Shown: positions 51,718 through 61,787 of the stretch, piece by piece
How the letters are laid out: every line of letters starts with the position of its first letter
How positions within the stretch are numbered: position 1 is the stretch's first letter
DNA from: an uncultured Spirochaetota bacterium
GTDB lineage: Bacteria; Spirochaetota; UBA4802; UBA5550
Reading direction: 5' to 3'
Assembly (NCBI GenBank): GCA_963732395.1
Contig: CAVSZF010000007.1
Coordinates: 761,571-825,570, forward strand
Length of the DNA stretch: 64,000 nt
Program-made: the position numbers and the translations under genes
The notes under the pieces: generated by a model
Databases searched by the model: none
Told to the model about the DNA's origin: nothing
The model's input: the letters and a program-made list of their open reading frames with translations, nothing else

Positions 51718-52941
51718 ATGAAGATAACCGCCATCGAACTCTATCATGTATCGGTTCCTCTCAGAAAGACCTTCTGGCCGACCTGGATACCGGGGTATCC
51801 GCAAACCCATAACAGGTTCACGCTCATAAAGATCGTCACGGACGAGGGGATAGAGGGATACTCCGCGGGATCTGCAATGGGTCGCGAGCGTCAGGGCCTC
51901 GGTGACCTCCTGGGTGGCTACCTTATCGGCGCGGACCCCACGGACATCGACCGTGTGCAATCGCTTTTAAAGCAGGCCGGGTACCTTGGATGGAGGAACT
52001 TCTGGATCGAGCCGGCCTGCTGGGACATTATCGGGAAAAAAGAGGGGAAGCCGGTCTACGAGCTTCTGGGCGGAAGTGCGAGGCCGGTCGAGGTATACTG
52101 CTCTACAGGGGAGATGCATGAACCGGAGCGTCGGGTAGACGAGCTTCTCGCCATGAGGGAGCGGGGCTTTCGGACGGCAAAACTAAGGGTCAAGAACGCG
52201 AGTCTCAAGGATGATATACGGCATGTCCGCATGGTGAGAAAGGGACTGGGCGCGAAGATGGCGCTCGGTGTCGACGCGAACCAGGGATGGCTCGTGTCCA
52301 TAGTCGATCGGCCCCCCGCATGGGATCTGAAGAGGGCGAAGGAGTTCGCCAGTGCATGTTATGATAACAGGATAGACTGGATCGAGGAGCCACTGGATTC
52401 CAGGGATTTCGACGGAAACGCGGCCTTGAGGCGCGCTTCCAAAGTAAAGATTTCCGGTGCGGAGCTGAATTACGGATGGGATGAAATCAAAATTATGCTG
52501 GAGAAGGACTGCTTCGACGTGTATCAGCCGGATGCGACCTTCGCAGGAGGGATTGCCCAGGTCGCGCAGGTGATGGAGGCGTGCAGAAAGAAGAAGCGCC
52601 TGTTTTCGCCTCATACCTGGACAAACGGTATAGGCTTTTATGTTAACTGGAACATGGTGCTGGCAGACCCGAAGAATACCCTGCCCCTCGAATATCCCCT
52701 CGAGGAGCCCTCGTGGGTACCTGAGCAGAGGGAGGGAATCATAGAACCGATACTTCACGTACAGGGAAGACTTGAGCCCTTTACCAGGCCGGGCCTCGGC
52801 TTCGAGATCGATCGGAGGCTTCTTCGGAAATATGGGACGCGCTTCTTCAGGCTGACCGAGACAGGGTTGAAGATAAAAGTCATAAGGGAAAAGGGGCTCA
52901 GGGAGGCGCTCGCACTGAAAAAGAAAAAAGAGGCGGGATAG
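51718..52941 (+). CDS. Enolase-superfamily enzyme (mandelate racemase / muconate lactonizing enzyme family)
   Basis: 407 aa. Metal-ligand context ALGVDANQGW and IDWIEEP. N-terminal capping domain. Substrate not inferable. Confidence 0.8.
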   Translation: MKITAIELYHVSVPLRKTFWPTWIPGYPQTHNRFTLIKIVTDEGIEGYSAGSAMGRERQGLGDLLGGYLIGADPTDIDRVQSLLKQAGYLGWRNFWIEPACWDIIGKKEGKPVYELLGGSARPVEVYCSTGEMHEPERRVDELLAMRERGFRTAKLRVKNASLKDDIRHVRMVRKGLGAKMALGVDANQGWLVSIVDRPPAWDLKRAKEFASACYDNRIDWIEEPLDSRDFDGNAALRRASKVKISGAELNYGWDEIKIMLEKDCFDVYQPDATFAGGIAQVAQVMEACRKKKRLFSPHTWTNGIGFYVNWNMVLADPKNTLPLEYPLEEPSWVPEQREGIIEPILHVQGRLEPFTRPGLGFEIDRRLLRKYGTRFFRLTETGLKIKVIREKGLREALALKKKKEAG

Positions 52942-55753: not shown

Positions 55754-55887
55754 TCAATAAGGGTGTGCGGTCATAATGGACCGACCCTTTACGGGCGCGC
55801 AAGGGGATACTGGACGGCGGCTGCGGGATAATCATGACGGATTGTCCGCACATCCCGCCCGTGGATGGCAAAAGGGGGGACAGGATA

Positions 55888-58782
55888 ATGGCAAAGAGAA
55901 TTCTCATGCCGGGCATATTGCTCCTTGCCTGTACGGTCGGTTTTTCCAATCAGTGGCATGATGAAGCCGATCGATTCTGGAACGAGGGCCAGAAGCTGAA
56001 GAAGGATTTGAAATACAGGGAGGCGATACAATTCCTGCGAAGGGCCGTGGCTGCGGAGATGAAAAACGAGAATCCCCGCGCTGATGAATTAATCGCTCAG
56101 TTCAACGAGCTCGGCATTCTATATGGCATGACAGGTTCCTTCGAGAGCTCTCTGCACTACCACCAGATGACCCTTAAGGCGGCCGAAAAATACGGGAGGG
56201 AAGATGATGAGGTGATGGCGCTCATCAATATCGGAAGGGTCAGCACCAACCTCGGGCGGCACCGGGAAGCCATTGACATCTATGGCCGGGCGCTGGAGAG
56301 GTCCAGGAAGTACGGCTTTGGGGACAAGGAGGTGCGTGTCCTGAACGATATGGCGGGAGCCCTGAGGGCAATGAATGATTTCGAAGGAGCCCTTGCGCGC
56401 TATACCGAAGCCCTCGATGCCGCGAAGAAGGCGGGGGGTGCGGTGCTGGAGGCGGCGATCATCAGCAATATCGGTACGCTCTATTTTTTCAGGGGGGATT
56501 TCGAGACCGCCCTGAAGGAATACGGTAGAGCTCTCGACATCGACAAGTCAAGGGGGGACGACATGGCCCTTTCCATAGGCATGAACAATATGGGAAGCGT
56601 GTATACAGCCATCGGAAAGTATGGGGAGGCCCTCAACTATTTTGAGAAATCGCTGGAAATCGACACCAGGCTGAAGAATGGCATCAACATCGCATCGCGT
56701 TTAAACAGGATAGGGGATATCTACTTCCGTGTCGGAGACGGCGCAAGCGCGATTGCGCATTTTAACCGATCTCTCGAAATCAACAACAGGATCAACAACA
56801 GGATCAACGTGGCGGTGCTGAACGCCAGCATCGGGCGTGTGTACGAGTCGATGGGCAGGTTCGAGGAATCCATTGATTATTACATAAAGGCACTCGCCCT
56901 AAACCGGGAGTTGGAAAAGGAAACCTATGTGGCCGAGCGATTGTCAGATATCGGTCTCCTTTACGAAATGCGTGGAAGGCACGGAGAGGCTGCCGATTAC
57001 TTTGCAAGGGCGCTGGAACGGGGAATCGGCACCGGAGGGAAGGAAAAGACAGCGGCGAACCTGAGCAACCTGGGACGTGTGATGACGGCGTTGAAGCGCT
57101 ATGATGTCGCGCTCGATTATTTTCGGCAGTCCCTGGAAATCTATCGAGAGACGAAGGATTCCATCTCGATTGCCGACGACCTGAAGAATTGCGGGATTGT
57201 CCACTACCATCGGAAGGAGTGGGACCTGGCGATCGACAGCCTTCTACGGGCGAGGGGCTCGATTGAGGGGACGCCCCGGACGATCTATCCGGTCAGGGAC
57301 GAGGTCGAAGGCGAGATGTACCGCTGGCTGGTCGCCGCGTATGTAATGTCTCAGAGACACGAGATGGCATTCGAGGCGAACGAACGGTTCTGCATTAACC
57401 GAATGTACTCGCCAGTTCATACCTGGAAACCGGCAGGGCCGGACCCTGCGGCCGGCTATGACAGGCTCAAGGACCGACTAGGGGCCAGCGGGGCGGCGGT
57501 GGTTTATTCGAATGTCTCCTGGGACGACCCACAGGTTGTCTGTATCAGGCGTGAAGGATCATCGGGCCATGTGCTGGACAAAGCCGCAACGGTGAAAACG
57601 ATATACAACCATTTTGGCCGCGAGATTGAACGCTTCATGGGGGAAAAAAAGACCGATATTATTTTCACAGTAGGACAGAGGTCGCGAAGCGATCATTATT
57701 ACATAGAGTTTGAAAAAATAATCAATTACTACCGGTATCTGGCCTCGAAAAAATATATCGGGAGCGATGAAAAGGATGCTTTGCGTCGCATCGGGAAGGC
57801 CCTCTACGACCTTCTTTTGGGAACAATCGGCCCGGCAATAAAAGGAAAGACGGAACTGATCATTCAGCCGGATGGCGTCCTTTCCACCCTGCCATTTGAA
57901 ACCCTGATCATGCCGGATGGAAGATTTCTCGTCGAGAAGTACATTATAACCTACGTGCACTCCCACACCATAAGCGCAGCCGCGGCGAAAAGAAAATACA
58001 ATGCCGGGAGGAAAGAACTGATGCTGATCGGCGGTGTCACCCATCCGTCAAAATCACTTCCCGGAGTCCTCGAATCGGTCCGGCACTATGAGCTCGTTAA
58101 ACAGAGAGCCGTCGATGCCATCATGAAAGGGAGGGACACCATCGGGCTGTACGGATTTTTCGGTATAGATGACATCGGTGGTCCCGGCGGCGACATAAAG
58201 GAAATCGAGTTACTGGATGGCGCCTGGAAGAACCATGACATACTCAGGGACGAGGACGTCACCGAGGGCGGGATACTGGGCGCCTCTCTCGCGGGGGCCT
58301 TTTCCGGGTACAGGATTCTGCATGTCGCCACGAGATCCGTCGTGGTTCCGGAGGCGCCGATTCTGAGCGCGCTGGTGCTCTCCAGCGAAAAGGGTGTTTC
58401 AGGTGGGAATGGCCTGCTGAATATCAGAAAAATCGCCTCTCTTAAGATAGCGGCCGATCTTGTGACCCTGTCGAACGTATTCCTGCCGCCTGCGCGTTAC
58501 AGCAAGGGGGAGGGAATATGGAGCCTCTGCGGTTCTTTCATGGATGCGGGAGCTCGGAACGTGGCGATATCGATCTGGCCTGTCGAGGGAGCGGTAAAGA
58601 TGGCACTCATAAAGCGGGCGTACCGCCTTGCACTGGAGGAGAAACTGCCCTACTGCAGTGCCTTTGCACGAGCGAAACGCGAGTTCATTACTCAAAAAGC
58701 CGATGACAGTTCCCCGGGTGGGAGTCCGGGGAACTATTCTTCCCCCTATTTCTGGGGATCTTTCATGCTGTATGGATACTAG
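55888..58782 (+). CDS. TPR-repeat / CHAT-domain (caspase-like) lipoprotein
   Basis: Start at MAKRILMPGILLLACT (lipobox). About 12 TPR-like repeats. C-terminal CHAT-like fold (LHVATRS...DLVTLSNVF...SLCGSFMDAGARNVAISIWPV) with the expected His-Gly and Cys positions apparently occupied by Arg-Ser and Asn. Confidence 0.8.
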   Translation: MAKRILMPGILLLACTVGFSNQWHDEADRFWNEGQKLKKDLKYREAIQFLRRAVAAEMKNENPRADELIAQFNELGILYGMTGSFESSLHYHQMTLKAAEKYGREDDEVMALINIGRVSTNLGRHREAIDIYGRALERSRKYGFGDKEVRVLNDMAGALRAMNDFEGALARYTEALDAAKKAGGAVLEAAIISNIGTLYFFRGDFETALKEYGRALDIDKSRGDDMALSIGMNNMGSVYTAIGKYGEALNYFEKSLEIDTRLKNGINIASRLNRIGDIYFRVGDGASAIAHFNRSLEINNRINNRINVAVLNASIGRVYESMGRFEESIDYYIKALALNRELEKETYVAERLSDIGLLYEMRGRHGEAADYFARALERGIGTGGKEKTAANLSNLGRVMTALKRYDVALDYFRQSLEIYRETKDSISIADDLKNCGIVHYHRKEWDLAIDSLLRARGSIEGTPRTIYPVRDEVEGEMYRWLVAAYVMSQRHEMAFEANERFCINRMYSPVHTWKPAGPDPAAGYDRLKDRLGASGAAVVYSNVSWDDPQVVCIRREGSSGHVLDKAATVKTIYNHFGREIERFMGEKKTDIIFTVGQRSRSDHYYIEFEKIINYYRYLASKKYIGSDEKDALRRIGKALYDLLLGTIGPAIKGKTELIIQPDGVLSTLPFETLIMPDGRFLVEKYIITYVHSHTISAAAAKRKYNAGRKELMLIGGVTHPSKSLPGVLESVRHYELVKQRAVDAIMKGRDTIGLYGFFGIDDIGGPGGDIKEIELLDGAWKNHDILRDEDVTEGGILGASLAGAFSGYRILHVATRSVVVPEAPILSALVLSSEKGVSGGNGLLNIRKIASLKIAADLVTLSNVFLPPARYSKGEGIWSLCGSFMDAGARNVAISIWPVEGAVKMALIKRAYRLALEEKLPYCSAFARAKREFITQKADDSSPGGSPGNYSSPYFWGSFMLYGY

Positions 58783-59327: not shown

Positions 59328-61625
59328 TTATACGGCCTGAATGATCTCCGGGTGGATCTCACCAATCGACGCGCAGCCTGTCAGGATCATGGCCGTCTCA
59401 ATCTCTTTTTTTAAGTGATTCAGGTAGAAGGAAACACCCTCGGCGCCCATGCCGACCGCGGCGATGGCAATGGGCCTACCGATCAATACGGCGTGCGCTC
59501 CGAAGGCCAACGCTTTCAGAATGTCCACACCCTCACGAAATCCGCCATCGACAAGAATTATCAGGTCGTCCTTCACTTCTCTCGCGATCTCTCCGAGTAC
59601 GTCCATTGATCCCATCATTTCATCGAGGACCCGACCGCCGTGGTTTGAAACGATGATGCCCCTTGCCCCGAGACGTGCGGCTGCCTCTGCATCATGGACG
59701 TTCATGATACCTTTTAGAAAGAAGGGGAGGGAAGTCGATGAAATGATGTCCCTGAGATCGGAAAAGCTCTTCGGTCCTACCGATTGATTCTTCATCGCCA
59801 TGGTCTTGAATACCACGGCGTCGATGTCCATGCCGACGGCGAGAGCACCCGCTTCCTCGGCCGCCCTGACGCGGGTGATTATTTCATCATTGTCACTGCG
59901 GGGCTTGAAGATGGGAATGCCCCTGCCCCCGAATTCAGAGATCGCACGAAGGCCGATCCTGTACTTGTCGGGAGTAGCCCCGTCCCCCACAAGGGCCAGG
60001 GTCCCGGCCCGGGAGCAGCCGCCGACAACCGCACGGTTGTAATCGAGTTCGTCGATGGCGCCGCCCATGTTTGTTACGGTTCCCGTGATAGGCGCGGCCA
60101 GAACCGGGAGGGCCAGATTGATATCGAGGAGCGTCGAGGATGTATCGGGTCTGGTGACTTCATGGATGAGGCGTGTCCGAATTTTATATTGCTTGAGGGA
60201 TGCAATATTGCGGCGGAATGACTCGCCGGTACCGGCACCACCCATGCCGGGCACTCCCGTGGGGCAGTCACGACCGTCGCAGTTCTTGCACACATAACAG
60301 ATTTTTTTGAATTTCTCCTTGGCAGAGAAATTGATGGTTTCCAGGGATATCTCCGATTCCTCGATCATGTCGAATTCAAGAATACGACGGCATTCCTCAA
60401 CATGTGCCACCGCCTCATCGAGGGTTTGACCCACGGCAATGATATGACCGGCTTTCTCGACGTTGGAGCGGGGGAGGGAAACTCTGTCTCCCTGCCTGAC
60501 GTTGAGAAAAATTTCCTCTATGCCGGGGACCTTCAGCGCCTCCTCGAGACCGGTGATTTTTCTCACGATGCCGGGTCTTGTGATGATCGCGCGCTCGATG
60601 GCGACACGTTTCATGACCGGCTCAAGATTTCCGGGTTCCTGTCCGAGTGCGACCTCAATGGCCGCCTTCATCAGGTCAACCCCTGTGGAAAGCGGGTACG
60701 TGTAGGCCGACATGAAACCGCCGGAAAGTCGGGCCGCTATTTCGCCTACCATGGGGCCCTTTTCGGTTATCTTGATGTCCCCCTTCGCGGCTCCGATATC
60801 AATTCCGAGGGCCCGAATGCCCTGTTTCATCACCTCGCATGCCGCGGCCTGCACCTCGCGCGGCAGTGCGGAGGGCATGTCGTGCCCCGTTTCAATGAAG
60901 TAGGGGGGATATTCGATAATCCGGTCCGCGATTCCTGTGATGGTAATTTCATTCTGGTATATGATGGCATCGATGGACAGCTCCGCGCCCTCCATGTATT
61001 CTTCCATGATCAGCTCGCCGCTGGGAGAGGCATTTTTGGCGAACTTGAATGCGTCAGGGAGCTGGTTCAGATTATCGACACGCATGACGCCCCGAGCCCC
61101 CATGTTGTCCGATGGCTTGATGACTATGGGAAACTTTAAAATTTTTCCCGCTTTTTTTGCATCGGAAAGCGACCAAACGGGAAGAAAAAGGGGCGATGGT
61201 ACGCCATGCTCTTTCATACGCATTCTCATCTTGATCTTGTTGGTGGCGGCCTCGGCGTCGTCGAACTTTATGCCCGGGAGGTCGAGGGTGTTGGCCACGG
61301 CGGCGACCGCCATGGAGGCGTCGGTCCCGACGGTGAGAACTGCGCTAATGGGTGTAATCTCGTTCTGTTGCCGGGCAGCGCGTACGGAACCCTCAATGTC
61401 GCGGGTACTCATGATGATGGGAATATCGGCGTCCCTGATGCCTAGCACATCCGGGTTATAGTCGCTCACTATGACCTGGTACCCCATCTTTTTCGCAGTG
61501 AGGATCGCGGGAAGCTGGAGAAGCCCGCCGCCGATTATCATGATTGTCTTTTTCAATTCCGGCTCCTCGTCAGGGCGGCCCGACGGCGCGGTGCCTGGGG
61601 GTTGGTGTGCTGCCGTAAAGATCAT
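59328..61625 (-). CDS. Fusion protein: ATP-grasp ligase domain + Cx2Cx2Cx4C linker + FMN-dependent alpha-hydroxy-acid dehydrogenase/oxidase-like TIM barrel
   Basis: N-terminal ATP-grasp (KKMGYQVIVSDYNPD, FPIVIKPSDNMGARG, EEYMEGAELSIDAI). Cys cluster CYVCKNCDGRDC at 60264-60299. C-terminal FMN_dh motifs (IVSNHGGRVLD, ILVDGGFREGVDILKALAFGAHAVLIGRP). An alternative start at 61541 (MIIGGG) is possible. Confidence 0.8.
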   Translation of the reverse strand: MIFTAAHQPPGTAPSGRPDEEPELKKTIMIIGGGLLQLPAILTAKKMGYQVIVSDYNPDVLGIRDADIPIIMSTRDIEGSVRAARQQNEITPISAVLTVGTDASMAVAAVANTLDLPGIKFDDAEAATNKIKMRMRMKEHGVPSPLFLPVWSLSDAKKAGKILKFPIVIKPSDNMGARGVMRVDNLNQLPDAFKFAKNASPSGELIMEEYMEGAELSIDAIIYQNEITITGIADRIIEYPPYFIETGHDMPSALPREVQAAACEVMKQGIRALGIDIGAAKGDIKITEKGPMVGEIAARLSGGFMSAYTYPLSTGVDLMKAAIEVALGQEPGNLEPVMKRVAIERAIITRPGIVRKITGLEEALKVPGIEEIFLNVRQGDRVSLPRSNVEKAGHIIAVGQTLDEAVAHVEECRRILEFDMIEESEISLETINFSAKEKFKKICYVCKNCDGRDCPTGVPGMGGAGTGESFRRNIASLKQYKIRTRLIHEVTRPDTSSTLLDINLALPVLAAPITGTVTNMGGAIDELDYNRAVVGGCSRAGTLALVGDGATPDKYRIGLRAISEFGGRGIPIFKPRSDNDEIITRVRAAEEAGALAVGMDIDAVVFKTMAMKNQSVGPKSFSDLRDIISSTSLPFFLKGIMNVHDAEAAARLGARGIIVSNHGGRVLDEMMGSMDVLGEIAREVKDDLIILVDGGFREGVDILKALAFGAHAVLIGRPIAIAAVGMGAEGVSFYLNHLKKEIETAMILTGCASIGEIHPEIIQAV

Positions 61626-61787
61626 ATGATCTTTTTTTATGTCGCATTCTATACCCCTGGTTTGATCACGTCAATAATTAATTATGGACGGACATGAAGC
61701 GAATGAAAATGTCTTGAAAAACCTGATCGGCACCACTACTGTGCCAGAGGGCGGGCGCATCACGTCGCGACGCTTCTCGGAGGAAGA

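Follow-up and report, generated by a model that had tools for sequence, protein, structure and literature searches.

What does a single protein do that joins an ATP-dependent carboxylate-amine ligase to a flavin-dependent dehydrogenase of hydroxy acids? The question is raised by an open reading frame (ORF) of 765 amino acids (aa) on the minus strand, at 59328..61625, of a stretch of 64,000 nucleotides (nt) from an uncultured Spirochaetota bacterium (GenBank assembly GCA_963732395.1, contig CAVSZF010000007.1, positions 761,571 to 825,570 of the forward strand), the whole of which is called the window below. As an earlier note on this DNA had described, the ORF joins an ATP-grasp ligase to a barrel dependent on flavin mononucleotide (FMN), with Pfam matches to ATP-grasp_4, LAL_C2 and FMN_dh. 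The note knew of no characterised enzyme with this architecture, and we found none either in the PDB, in NCBIfam or in published work: the fusion protein scores below the cut-off of every NCBIfam model, and the literature search returned nothing on the architecture or on an FMN_dh protein with a Cys motif. From the comparisons reported here, the fusion is an old, widespread and strongly conserved orthologue group of Spirochaetota and Nitrospinota, with hundreds of orthologues. The reading that we favour, although we put its chances somewhat below even, is that of a self-contained bifunctional small-molecule enzyme, whose two halves would act in turn on one metabolite.

The fusion, at first thought unusual, is common and strongly conserved in two phyla, though under generic names only. 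In a first homology search we obtained more than 120 clusters, with lengths of 728-767 aa and identities of 69-88%; where a source was named, it was nearly always Spirochaetes/Spirochaetota, and all protein names were generic. An exhaustive search among 50%-identity representatives yielded about 25 distinct full-fusion clusters, down to about 37% identity. Named fusions at this level came from Spirochaetales, Spirochaetaceae and Turneriella, with identity falling to about 37% in Leptospirales. A genome scan (one genome per species, an alignment of FMN_dh proteins with the Cys motif as query, 80 loci kept) added fusions in Leptonema, in Leptospiraceae and, unexpectedly, in Nitrospinota. When a Nitrospinota copy was used for searching, more than 120 further clusters were obtained at 74-94% identity, including Nitrohelix and Nitronauta. 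The Nitrospinota fusions are about 53% identical to the window protein, and the mean column identity amounts to 79% within spirochaetes and 70% across both phyla.

Residues are numbered here from the ATG at 61625, where the longer form of the ORF begins. Translation most likely begins further in, at a TTG (codon 24, base 61556), which shortens the protein from 765 to 742 aa: a GAGGAG lies 6 nt upstream, a 100%-identical database copy (P0001) has 742 aa, and the orthologues begin with MKKTIMIIGGG. The gene is monocistronic and has no biosynthetic cluster around it. The note had divided the protein into three parts. Only two modules are present, the cluster of four Cys (Cys4) being part of the FMN_dh half, since standalone FMN_dh proteins of about 340 aa start with it. 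The features of the gene and of its modules are as follows.

61646..61674, minus strand: sigma-70-like promoter match TTGACG-17-TAGAAT, 10 of 12 consensus positions, a consensus match only
61563..61568, minus strand: GAGGAG Shine-Dalgarno sequence, 6 nt 5' of the TTG start
59328..61556, minus strand: probable coding sequence of the fusion, 742 aa, TTG start, stop codon at 59328-59330
60366..61556, minus strand: ATP-grasp carboxylate-amine ligase half of L-amino-acid-ligase type, ORF residues 24-420, with K170, E208, D283, E295 and R299
60372..60584, minus strand: LAL_C2 domain (PF18603), residues 348-418, Pfam E 5.9e-18
60300..60365, minus strand: short junction, residues 421-442
60264..60299, minus strand: Cx2Cx2Cx4C motif CYVCKNCDGRDC (C443, C446, C449, C454), residues 443-454, presumed metal or iron-sulfur (Fe-S) site
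59331..60263, minus strand: FMN-dependent dehydrogenase TIM barrel, residues 455-765

The assignment of the Cys4 stretch comes from the standalone relatives, which open with C-x2-C-x2-C-x4-C-x2-G-(V/I)-P-G-(M/F)-G-G. The canonical motif is found near residue 18 in 66 of about 70 such genes, and the four Cys are invariant both in these 66 proteins and in 69 fusion orthologues from the two phyla. Being conserved in fused and standalone proteins, the motif is therefore not there by chance. It is the N-terminal hallmark of a distinct FMN_dh subfamily, rather than a separate middle module or a linker. This 'Cys4' subfamily was delineated in the present analysis and has no curated model. The window protein carries all of its marks, namely Cys4 followed by (V/I)PG(M/F)GG, the invariant K574/P575, G547-D548, D600 and a shortened loop 4, and the same marks are present in 66 standalone sequences from many anaerobic phyla. 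Carriers of the standalone form are mostly anaerobes (Clostridia, Desulfobacterota, Negativicutes, Synergistota, Thermodesulfovibrio, Asgard archaea). The helix that precedes Cys4 in the fusion (residues 428-441) is the counterpart of the N-terminal helix of the standalone proteins, with A435 conserved in both forms, and the two modules therefore abut with few linker residues.

Two variants of the standalone proteins were noticed in passing. Some homologues carry twin-arginine (Tat) signal peptides (L023, L076, L079 from Shewanella phaeophyticola, and protein P0224), which implies putative periplasmic, cofactor-loaded versions of the Cys4 flavoenzyme; in the S. phaeophyticola copy the spacing of the Cys differs. 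A small subgroup, L048 from Spirochaetia and L057 and L082 from Asgard archaea, has the three-Cys motif CGVYKECDGDPSRLC instead of Cx2Cx2Cx4C. The N-termini in this subgroup are nearly identical between a spirochaete and metagenome-assembled genomes of Heimdall- and Hod-archaea, which suggests that it may have spread by lateral transfer.

The C-terminal half is a glycolate/lactate-oxidase-like FMN barrel, as had been proposed, and does not belong to a different TIM-barrel family. It matches Pfam FMN_dh (PF01070) with 220.8 bits against a cut-off of 24.9 (E 3.4e-65), and a PDB sequence search returned lactate, glycolate, hydroxy-acid and mandelate oxidases (E 1e-26 to 1e-36). The motifs lie where they had been placed, with CYVCKNCDGRDC at 443-454, SNHGGR at 660-665 and DGGFR at 693-697. 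No curated model of a named enzyme was reached: scores were 131 bits against 550 for LldD, 106 against 646 for lactate oxidase, 146 against 376 for PRK11197, and 108 against 470.85 for the MftD model TIGR03966. The elements of the flavin site are these.

60207..60257, minus strand: invariant GVPGMGG-G-G-SF-RN segment, residues 457-473, taking the place of the canonical Tyr24 region
59898..59906, minus strand: K574-P575-R576 at the end of beta-3, where canonical enzymes have Gln127 and Tyr129
59769..59810, minus strand: fusion-specific invariant lid FKTMAMKNQSVGPK, residues 606-619, replacing the longer loop 4 and without an equivalent of Arg164
59631..59648, minus strand: SNHGGR, residues 660-665, catalytic His and substrate-binding Arg (His254 and Arg257 of glycolate oxidase)
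59535..59549, minus strand: DGGFR, residues 693-697, FMN phosphate-binding motif

The reference for this half was the spinach glycolate oxidase sequence, whose numbering reproduces the known catalytic positions. Conserved with respect to it are K230 (K638 in the window protein), H254 (H662), R257 (R665), D157 (D602) and the DGG-x-R and G-R-P motifs for the FMN phosphate; K638, H662, R665, D602, D693-G-G-F-R697 and R717 are invariant in the 69 fused and 66 standalone sequences. The window C-half thus shares the PF01070 barrel and the equivalents of His254, Arg257, Lys230 and Asp157 with glycolate oxidase, HAO1-3, lactate oxidase, Hmo and LldD, but differs from them by the additional N-terminal Cys4, the loss of Tyr24, Tyr129 and Arg164, and the shortened loop 4. 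In canonical enzymes, Tyr24, Tyr129 and Arg164 hold the carboxylate and hydroxyl of the substrate. The aligned segments of the window protein have no Tyr or Arg there: Cys4/GVPGMGG stands at Tyr24, K574-P-R576 at Gln127/Tyr129 (the register of this segment shifts by about 2 residues between two alignments, and it lacks a Tyr in both), and FKTMAMKNQ at Arg164. Loop 4 is about 35 residues shorter than in the canonical enzymes, and Trp108 is replaced by a Gly inside an invariant G-D-G.

Some of these replacements are proper to the fusions. Whereas K574 is invariant across the whole Cys4 subfamily, R576 is invariant in fusions only (76% of the standalone proteins have a Trp), and so are the lid residues F606-K-T-M..K612.Q614. 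Such fusion-specific invariant residues in pocket and lid suggest co-adaptation. In a nearest-neighbour test, 4 of the 82 'unfused' C-halves were closest to fused ones, and all four turned out to be truncated fusions. A neighbour-joining test of monophyly was uninformative, as fragments and the odd fusion P0249 spread the most recent common ancestor over the whole tree. By their residues and by the nearest-neighbour test, the fused flavin halves are a separate sub-clade with a pocket of its own, more cationic, and the altered pocket is in line with a substrate that is not just a free 2-hydroxy acid. Databases label the fusion 'alpha-hydroxy-acid oxidizing protein', 'glycolate oxidase' or 'L-lactate dehydrogenase', names that are probably wrong in detail because the three canonical substrate-binding residues are absent. 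As for P0249 (722 aa), a different, weakly matching ATP-grasp is joined there to a Cys4-type FMN_dh that is closest to the standalone proteins, and it is therefore probably an independent fusion.

The N-terminal half matches Pfam ATP-grasp_4 at residues 164-304 (E 1.9e-14), as well as ATP-grasp_3, and in the PDB sequence search it matches the L-amino-acid ligase BL00235 (3vot, E 4e-29). With the L-amino-acid ligases BL00235/3VOT, RizA/4WD3 and BacD-YwfE/3VMM it shares the fold, LAL_C2, the ATP/Mg residues and an E-x-A-x-R-x-S-G-G motif. It is, however, only 18-25% identical to them and fused to a flavoenzyme, and its closest unfused relatives lie in sugar or nonulosonic-acid operons rather than in dipeptide-antibiotic clusters. 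All named equivalog cut-offs are missed (42 bits against 840 for DdaF, 29 against 850 for BacD, 37 against 248 for PylC). Five residues, K170, E208, D283, E295 and R299, reach 96% conservation or more across 48 fused and 117 unfused members of the clade; by the general pattern of ATP-grasp enzymes, we take them to be the ATP-binding Lys, the hinge Glu, a pair of acidic Mg ligands and the catalytic Arg. A second, clade-specific set is near-invariant (D102, K130, R134, E215, D219, R235, E245, H248), and both sets are equally kept in fused and unfused members. Because the ATP-grasp residues are conserved to the same extent in the two forms, the ligase half, which is catalytically intact, is expected to be active.

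The unfused relatives of this half give some indication of its chemistry. Among the best 149 representatives of the clade, the ATP-grasp stands alone in 37, carries a C-terminal extension of about 140 aa in 73, is doubled in 6 and is fused to the flavoenzyme in 25; P0213, P0216 and P0269 have two ATP-grasp units in tandem. The gene of P0144, which shares 53% identity with the fused N-half, lies between genes for glycosyltransferases, NeuB, a CMP-sugar cytidylyltransferase and a GFO/IDH/MocA oxidoreductase. Spirochaete contigs also encode ATP-grasp paralogues of about 550 aa, 43-48% identical to the fused N-half, whose extension of about 140 aa is unrelated to the flavoenzyme, ends with (F/L)W..(F/L)LRGG.QGG....ID and has no Pfam match.

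L087, 8001-9656: ATP-grasp paralogue of about 550 aa
L088, 8001-9656: ATP-grasp paralogue of about 550 aa
L089, 8001-9680: ATP-grasp paralogue of about 550 aa
L090, 5452-7098: ATP-grasp paralogue of about 550 aa

On three independent spirochaete contigs the paralogue belongs to a common operon, with genes for a radical-SAM/SPASM protein, an unassigned protein of about 320 aa, a cytidylyltransferase, a large methyltransferase, the ATP-grasp protein, Amidase_3, Germane and FlaA, after which come cheA and cheW. The unassigned genes of this operon gave no family or PDB match.

The FlaB flagellins of spirochaetes are O-glycosylated. In T. denticola, the flagellin sugar is a nonulosonic acid with an amide-linked 2-methoxy-4,5,6-trihydroxy-hexanoyl group (PMC13439194), and PseI (TDE0960) is required (PMC9862357). 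In Shewanella oneidensis, the ATP-grasp_4 protein SfmE is encoded in a NeuB/methyltransferase operon for flagellin modification, and deletion of sfmE lowers the mass of the modification (PMC3765264). SfmE (SO_3265), likened here by family and context and not by sequence, and the FlaA-linked paralogues are all ATP-grasp_4 ligases encoded beside NeuB-like, cytidylyltransferase and methyltransferase genes; the fusion gene of the window, in contrast, lies outside any such operon. These contexts are suggestive, though no proof, of a role of this ATP-grasp clade in attaching acyl groups of the hydroxy-acid type to amino sugars. The genomic surroundings of the relatives likewise suggest a ligase substrate other than an amino acid. 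The paralogue of about 550 aa is a plausible candidate for the ligase that joins the 2-methoxy-trihydroxy-hexanoyl group to the nonulosonic acid of spirochaete flagellins.

A further indication comes from Nitrospinota, where a gene of about 265 aa follows the fusion in four of the five contexts examined.

L013, 5517-6302: partner gene
L084, 11288-12085: partner gene
L085, 11289-12101: partner gene
L083, 11485-12276: partner gene

Fusion and partner overlap by as much as 4 nt or lie up to 29 nt apart in three of these contexts, and they are 235 nt apart in L083. The two genes are apparently co-transcribed, and may even be translationally coupled. An ORF matching the partner is also found 3' of the fusion in L016. 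The partner is a very divergent member of the HpcH/HpaI family, in which both acidic metal ligands of the 2-keto-3-deoxy-acid aldolases YfaU and HpaI are retained. The genes of ATP-citrate lyase (ACL) come right after it. A role of the partner as a missing citryl-CoA lyase was considered and rejected, because AclA carries a citryl-CoA-lyase domain of its own. This Nitrospinota ACL alpha subunit (L083, L084, L085, L013; for example L085 13707-16421) is itself peculiar: it is 904 aa long, its N-terminal part matches the alpha subunit of succinyl-CoA ligase, residues 622-897 weakly match citryl-CoA lyase, and about 300 residues in between have no assignment. Canonical AclA, with about 600 aa, is shorter. 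The ACL genes of N. gracilis are reportedly of very low similarity to known ACLs, according to its genome paper.

An AlphaFold2 model built from the two-phylum alignment was confident overall, with a mean predicted local distance difference test (pLDDT) of 88.1 and a predicted template modelling score (pTM) of 0.64. Its confidence drops most at the junction and the Cys4 loop, where the block means are 54-74 and secondary structure is absent. Compared to the PDB with Foldseek, the N-half resembles 3vot (TM score 0.87), RizA (0.76) and BacD (0.72), and the C-half mandelate oxidase (about 0.77). No PDB structure with both halves in the same arrangement was found with Foldseek; pyruvate carboxylase matches only as an ATP-grasp plus a TIM barrel, at a root mean square deviation of about 25 Å.

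We read the two halves as acting on one metabolite because a fusion almost devoid of linker has long been retained, the pocket is specific to the fusion, the ligands of a free carboxylate have been lost, the Nitrospinota partner is aldolase-like, and sugar-acid-acyl chemistry surrounds the paralogues. In the ATP-grasp half, a carboxylate would be converted to its acyl phosphate and the acyl group then joined to an amine. The flavin site would interconvert a 2-oxo acid and a 2-hydroxy acid, or else oxidise a 2-hydroxyacyl group after ligation, and the product would be an N-(2-hydroxyacyl) or N-(2-oxoacyl) amide. Cys4 probably binds an Fe-S cluster, less likely a structural zinc, and would pass electrons between FMN and an external carrier in place of O2. 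More speculatively, the acid could be a sugar-derived 2-oxo or 2-hydroxy acid, for example a 3-deoxy-aldonate, and the amine an amino sugar or a nonulosonic acid of a surface glycan. Making and oxidising an amide-linked metabolite, as the earlier note had imagined, is then the most reasonable reading, a small molecule being more likely than a peptide. A more specific form of it, which we consider improbable as it stands, is a two-step amide route: an FMN/iron-sulfur oxidoreductase of a new class, linked to ferredoxin and not to O2 or NAD, would hand its product directly to the ATP-grasp ligase, which would attach it to an amino sugar, a nonulosonic acid or another amine, while a dedicated class II aldolase of Nitrospinota would make the 2-oxo acid from pyruvate and an aldehyde.

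Known systems offer partial likenesses. An ATP-grasp enzyme and a dehydrogenase act on one molecule in VanH/VanA, where a 2-oxo acid is reduced and then ligated, and in PylC/PylD, where ligation precedes oxidation. These dehydrogenases are NAD(P)-dependent and separate, whereas the partner in the window protein is of the FMN/Cys4 type and fused in cis, so that we are dealing with an analogy and not with homology. For the electron path, the comparison is with flavocytochrome b2, the yeast L-lactate:cytochrome c oxidoreductase, which matches the window C-half in sequence (E about 1e-26). There, the module that accepts electrons immediately precedes the FMN_dh barrel and takes the position of the Tyr143/Tyr24 region, which contacts the acceptor. 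Instead of a cytochrome b5 domain, the window protein has at this place a Cys4 loop of 12 residues that would bind a metal or an Fe-S cluster. By analogy, we infer that Cys4 may relay electrons like the N-terminal haem domain of flavocytochrome b2.

Several observations weigh against our proposal. The spacing of the Cys differs from the classic ferredoxin pattern CxxCxxCxxxCP, as the last spacer has 4 residues and the Pro that follows is not conserved outside spirochaetes. The fusion gene was never found inside a sugar or nonulosonic-acid cluster at the loci inspected, and a scan of 17 of the 51 window ORFs, located between 41.8 and 64 kb, showed no nonulosonic-acid or flagellar gene. The fusion itself occurs in hundreds of genomes, but the adjacent split genes that had also been suggested as worth searching were not found: the ATP-grasp clade never occurred within 10 kb of the about 70 standalone Cys4-FMN_dh loci, all from named genomes, so that no support for coupling comes from split genes. 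The HpcH-like partner is missing from L021, the fifth Nitrospinota context, is confined to Nitrospinota in all 254 matches with a named source, and was not found in the spirochaete window. Finally, a pTM of 0.64 leaves the relative arrangement of the domains in the AlphaFold2 model uncertain.

The first alternative is that two independent activities, an anaerobic 2-hydroxy-acid (L-lactate, glycolate) dehydrogenase and a dipeptide-forming L-amino-acid ligase, were fused for co-expression. This is possible but unlikely. That standalone Cys4-FMN_dh proteins are widespread without an ATP-grasp partner, and that the ATP-grasp clade is found alone or with other C-terminal partners, speaks in its favour, as does the expression on lactate of DVU2784, a Desulfovibrio dehydrogenase of the 'FMN-dependent family' (PMC4481167) that may belong to the Cys4 subfamily. 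Against it, the fusion was kept for very long in two phyla with a linker almost absent, the fused flavin halves group together and have pocket and lid residues of their own, and the canonical carboxylate ligands Tyr24 and Arg164 are absent.

Another alternative concerns only the electron-relay part of our proposal: Cys4 would be a structural zinc site and the flavin half an ordinary oxidase using O2 and making H2O2. Contiguous CxxCxxC motifs are more typical of Fe-S than of zinc sites, which counts against this idea. The great majority of carriers of the Cys4 subfamily are moreover strict anaerobes, in which an oxidase lacks an acceptor, the Tat signals of some members imply export after cofactor insertion, and the loop is of low confidence in the model, unlike typical zinc knuckles, although this last evidence is weak. 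On the other side, Cx2Cx2Cx4C is not the ferredoxin consensus, the small subgroup formed by L048, L057 and L082 manages on three Cys, and Nitrospinota are aerobes (PMC3578206). We regard the zinc site with an ordinary oxidase as doubtful.

A role in central carbon metabolism, with an ATP-dependent step tied in Nitrospinota to the reductive tricarboxylic acid (TCA) cycle or in spirochaetes to gluconeogenesis, for instance on malate, oxaloacetate or another dicarboxylic hydroxy acid, seems very improbable. It would account for the position of the Nitrospinota fusion upstream of the ACL genes, for the divergent glpX next to the spirochaete fusion and for the extra cationic residues of the pocket (R576, K607, K612). 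But an ACL alpha subunit with its own citryl-CoA-lyase domain needs no extra partner, glpX is no longer linked to the fusion in spirochaetes that are more distant, and ligases of the L-amino-acid type are not known in such pathways. To our knowledge, fermentative spirochaetes do not run a reductive TCA cycle.

Least credible of all is the suggestion of the earlier note that the protein tailors a ribosomally synthesised and post-translationally modified peptide (RiPP), the ATP-grasp making a peptide or lactam/lactone bond and an MftD-like flavin domain oxidising the ribosomal peptide. ATP-grasp ligases and MftD-type FMN oxidases do both occur in RiPP pathways, MftD (pre-mycofactocin synthase) being an FMN_dh enzyme that makes an alpha-keto amide on an amide- or peptide-bound substrate, and the lost free-carboxylate ligands would suit a peptide-bound substrate; the idea is nevertheless very hard to maintain, as the MftD model is far from reached (108 bits against 471), the ATP-grasp is LAL/PurK-like with LAL_C2 and not of the graspetide type, the monocistronic fusion gene of the window, with flanking gaps of 21 and about 230 nt, has nothing nearby that resembles a small precursor ORF or a gene for a radical-SAM protein, a protease or an exporter, no mft-type gene was found within 6-10 kb in the window or at nine related fusion loci inspected gene by gene, the neighbours vary by lineage, and 70-90% identity within each phylum is more typical of core than of secondary metabolism.

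In the window and in a close relative, the gene order is DnaJ, LexA, TPR-CHAT, PIN-like, fusion (convergent with the latter), glpX (divergent) and GAF-SpoIIE. Of the neighbours that had been named, the upstream, divergent glpX is confirmed (PF03320, E 2.8e-105), but the convergent downstream 'PIN' gene has no Pfam match even at E = 5; its orthologue in L001 carries a precomputed DUF3368 match, and the window ORF matches the PADLOC family PDC-S70. A more distant spirochaete retains only GAF-SpoIIE and a HI0933-like gene beside the fusion, and in Leptospirales the neighbours are mnmA, a GTPase gene and GDPD instead. When recurrent neighbours were clustered over the 80 loci, nothing occurred in more than about 10%, and the largest cluster was an antisense artefact.

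Other genes of the window deserve a mention.

55834-58782, plus strand: TPR-CHAT protein, 982 aa
58785-59306, plus strand: PIN-like ORF, 173 aa, 2 nt after the preceding gene
51718-52941, plus strand: enolase-superfamily gene (MR_MLE_N and MR_MLE_C), between a nitroreductase gene and a 254-aa gene without assigned function

PDC-S70, which the PIN-like ORF matches with E 3.6e-11, is a candidate defence family, and the pair formed with TPR-CHAT is conserved in L001; together the two genes could act as a defence or toxin module, unrelated to the fusion. A defence role of the fusion itself was rejected, the fusion protein having no PADLOC match. The enolase superfamily includes acid-sugar dehydratases and dipeptide epimerases; the gene of the window is absent at the corresponding place in the syntenic relative L001.

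Both halves of the fusion come from well-studied families, yet their combination and the Cys4 subfamily have no assigned function, although hundreds of genomes carry them. Clostridia, Desulfobacterota and gut Firmicutes commonly have the standalone form; the fused form is very strongly conserved among free-living spirochaetes and the principal marine nitrite oxidisers. We see the protein as a target for enzyme discovery, and not as a new kind of biological system. Knowing its reaction would correct a widespread annotation, might define a new class of FMN/Fe-S hydroxy-acid dehydrogenases, and could reveal an unrecognised amide-linked metabolite or glycan decoration. If the two-step route were true, it would point to how the flagellin sugars of spirochaetes gain their unusual 2-O-methyl-3-deoxy-hexonoyl side chain, and would provide a first function for a flavoenzyme subfamily common in gut and sediment anaerobes.

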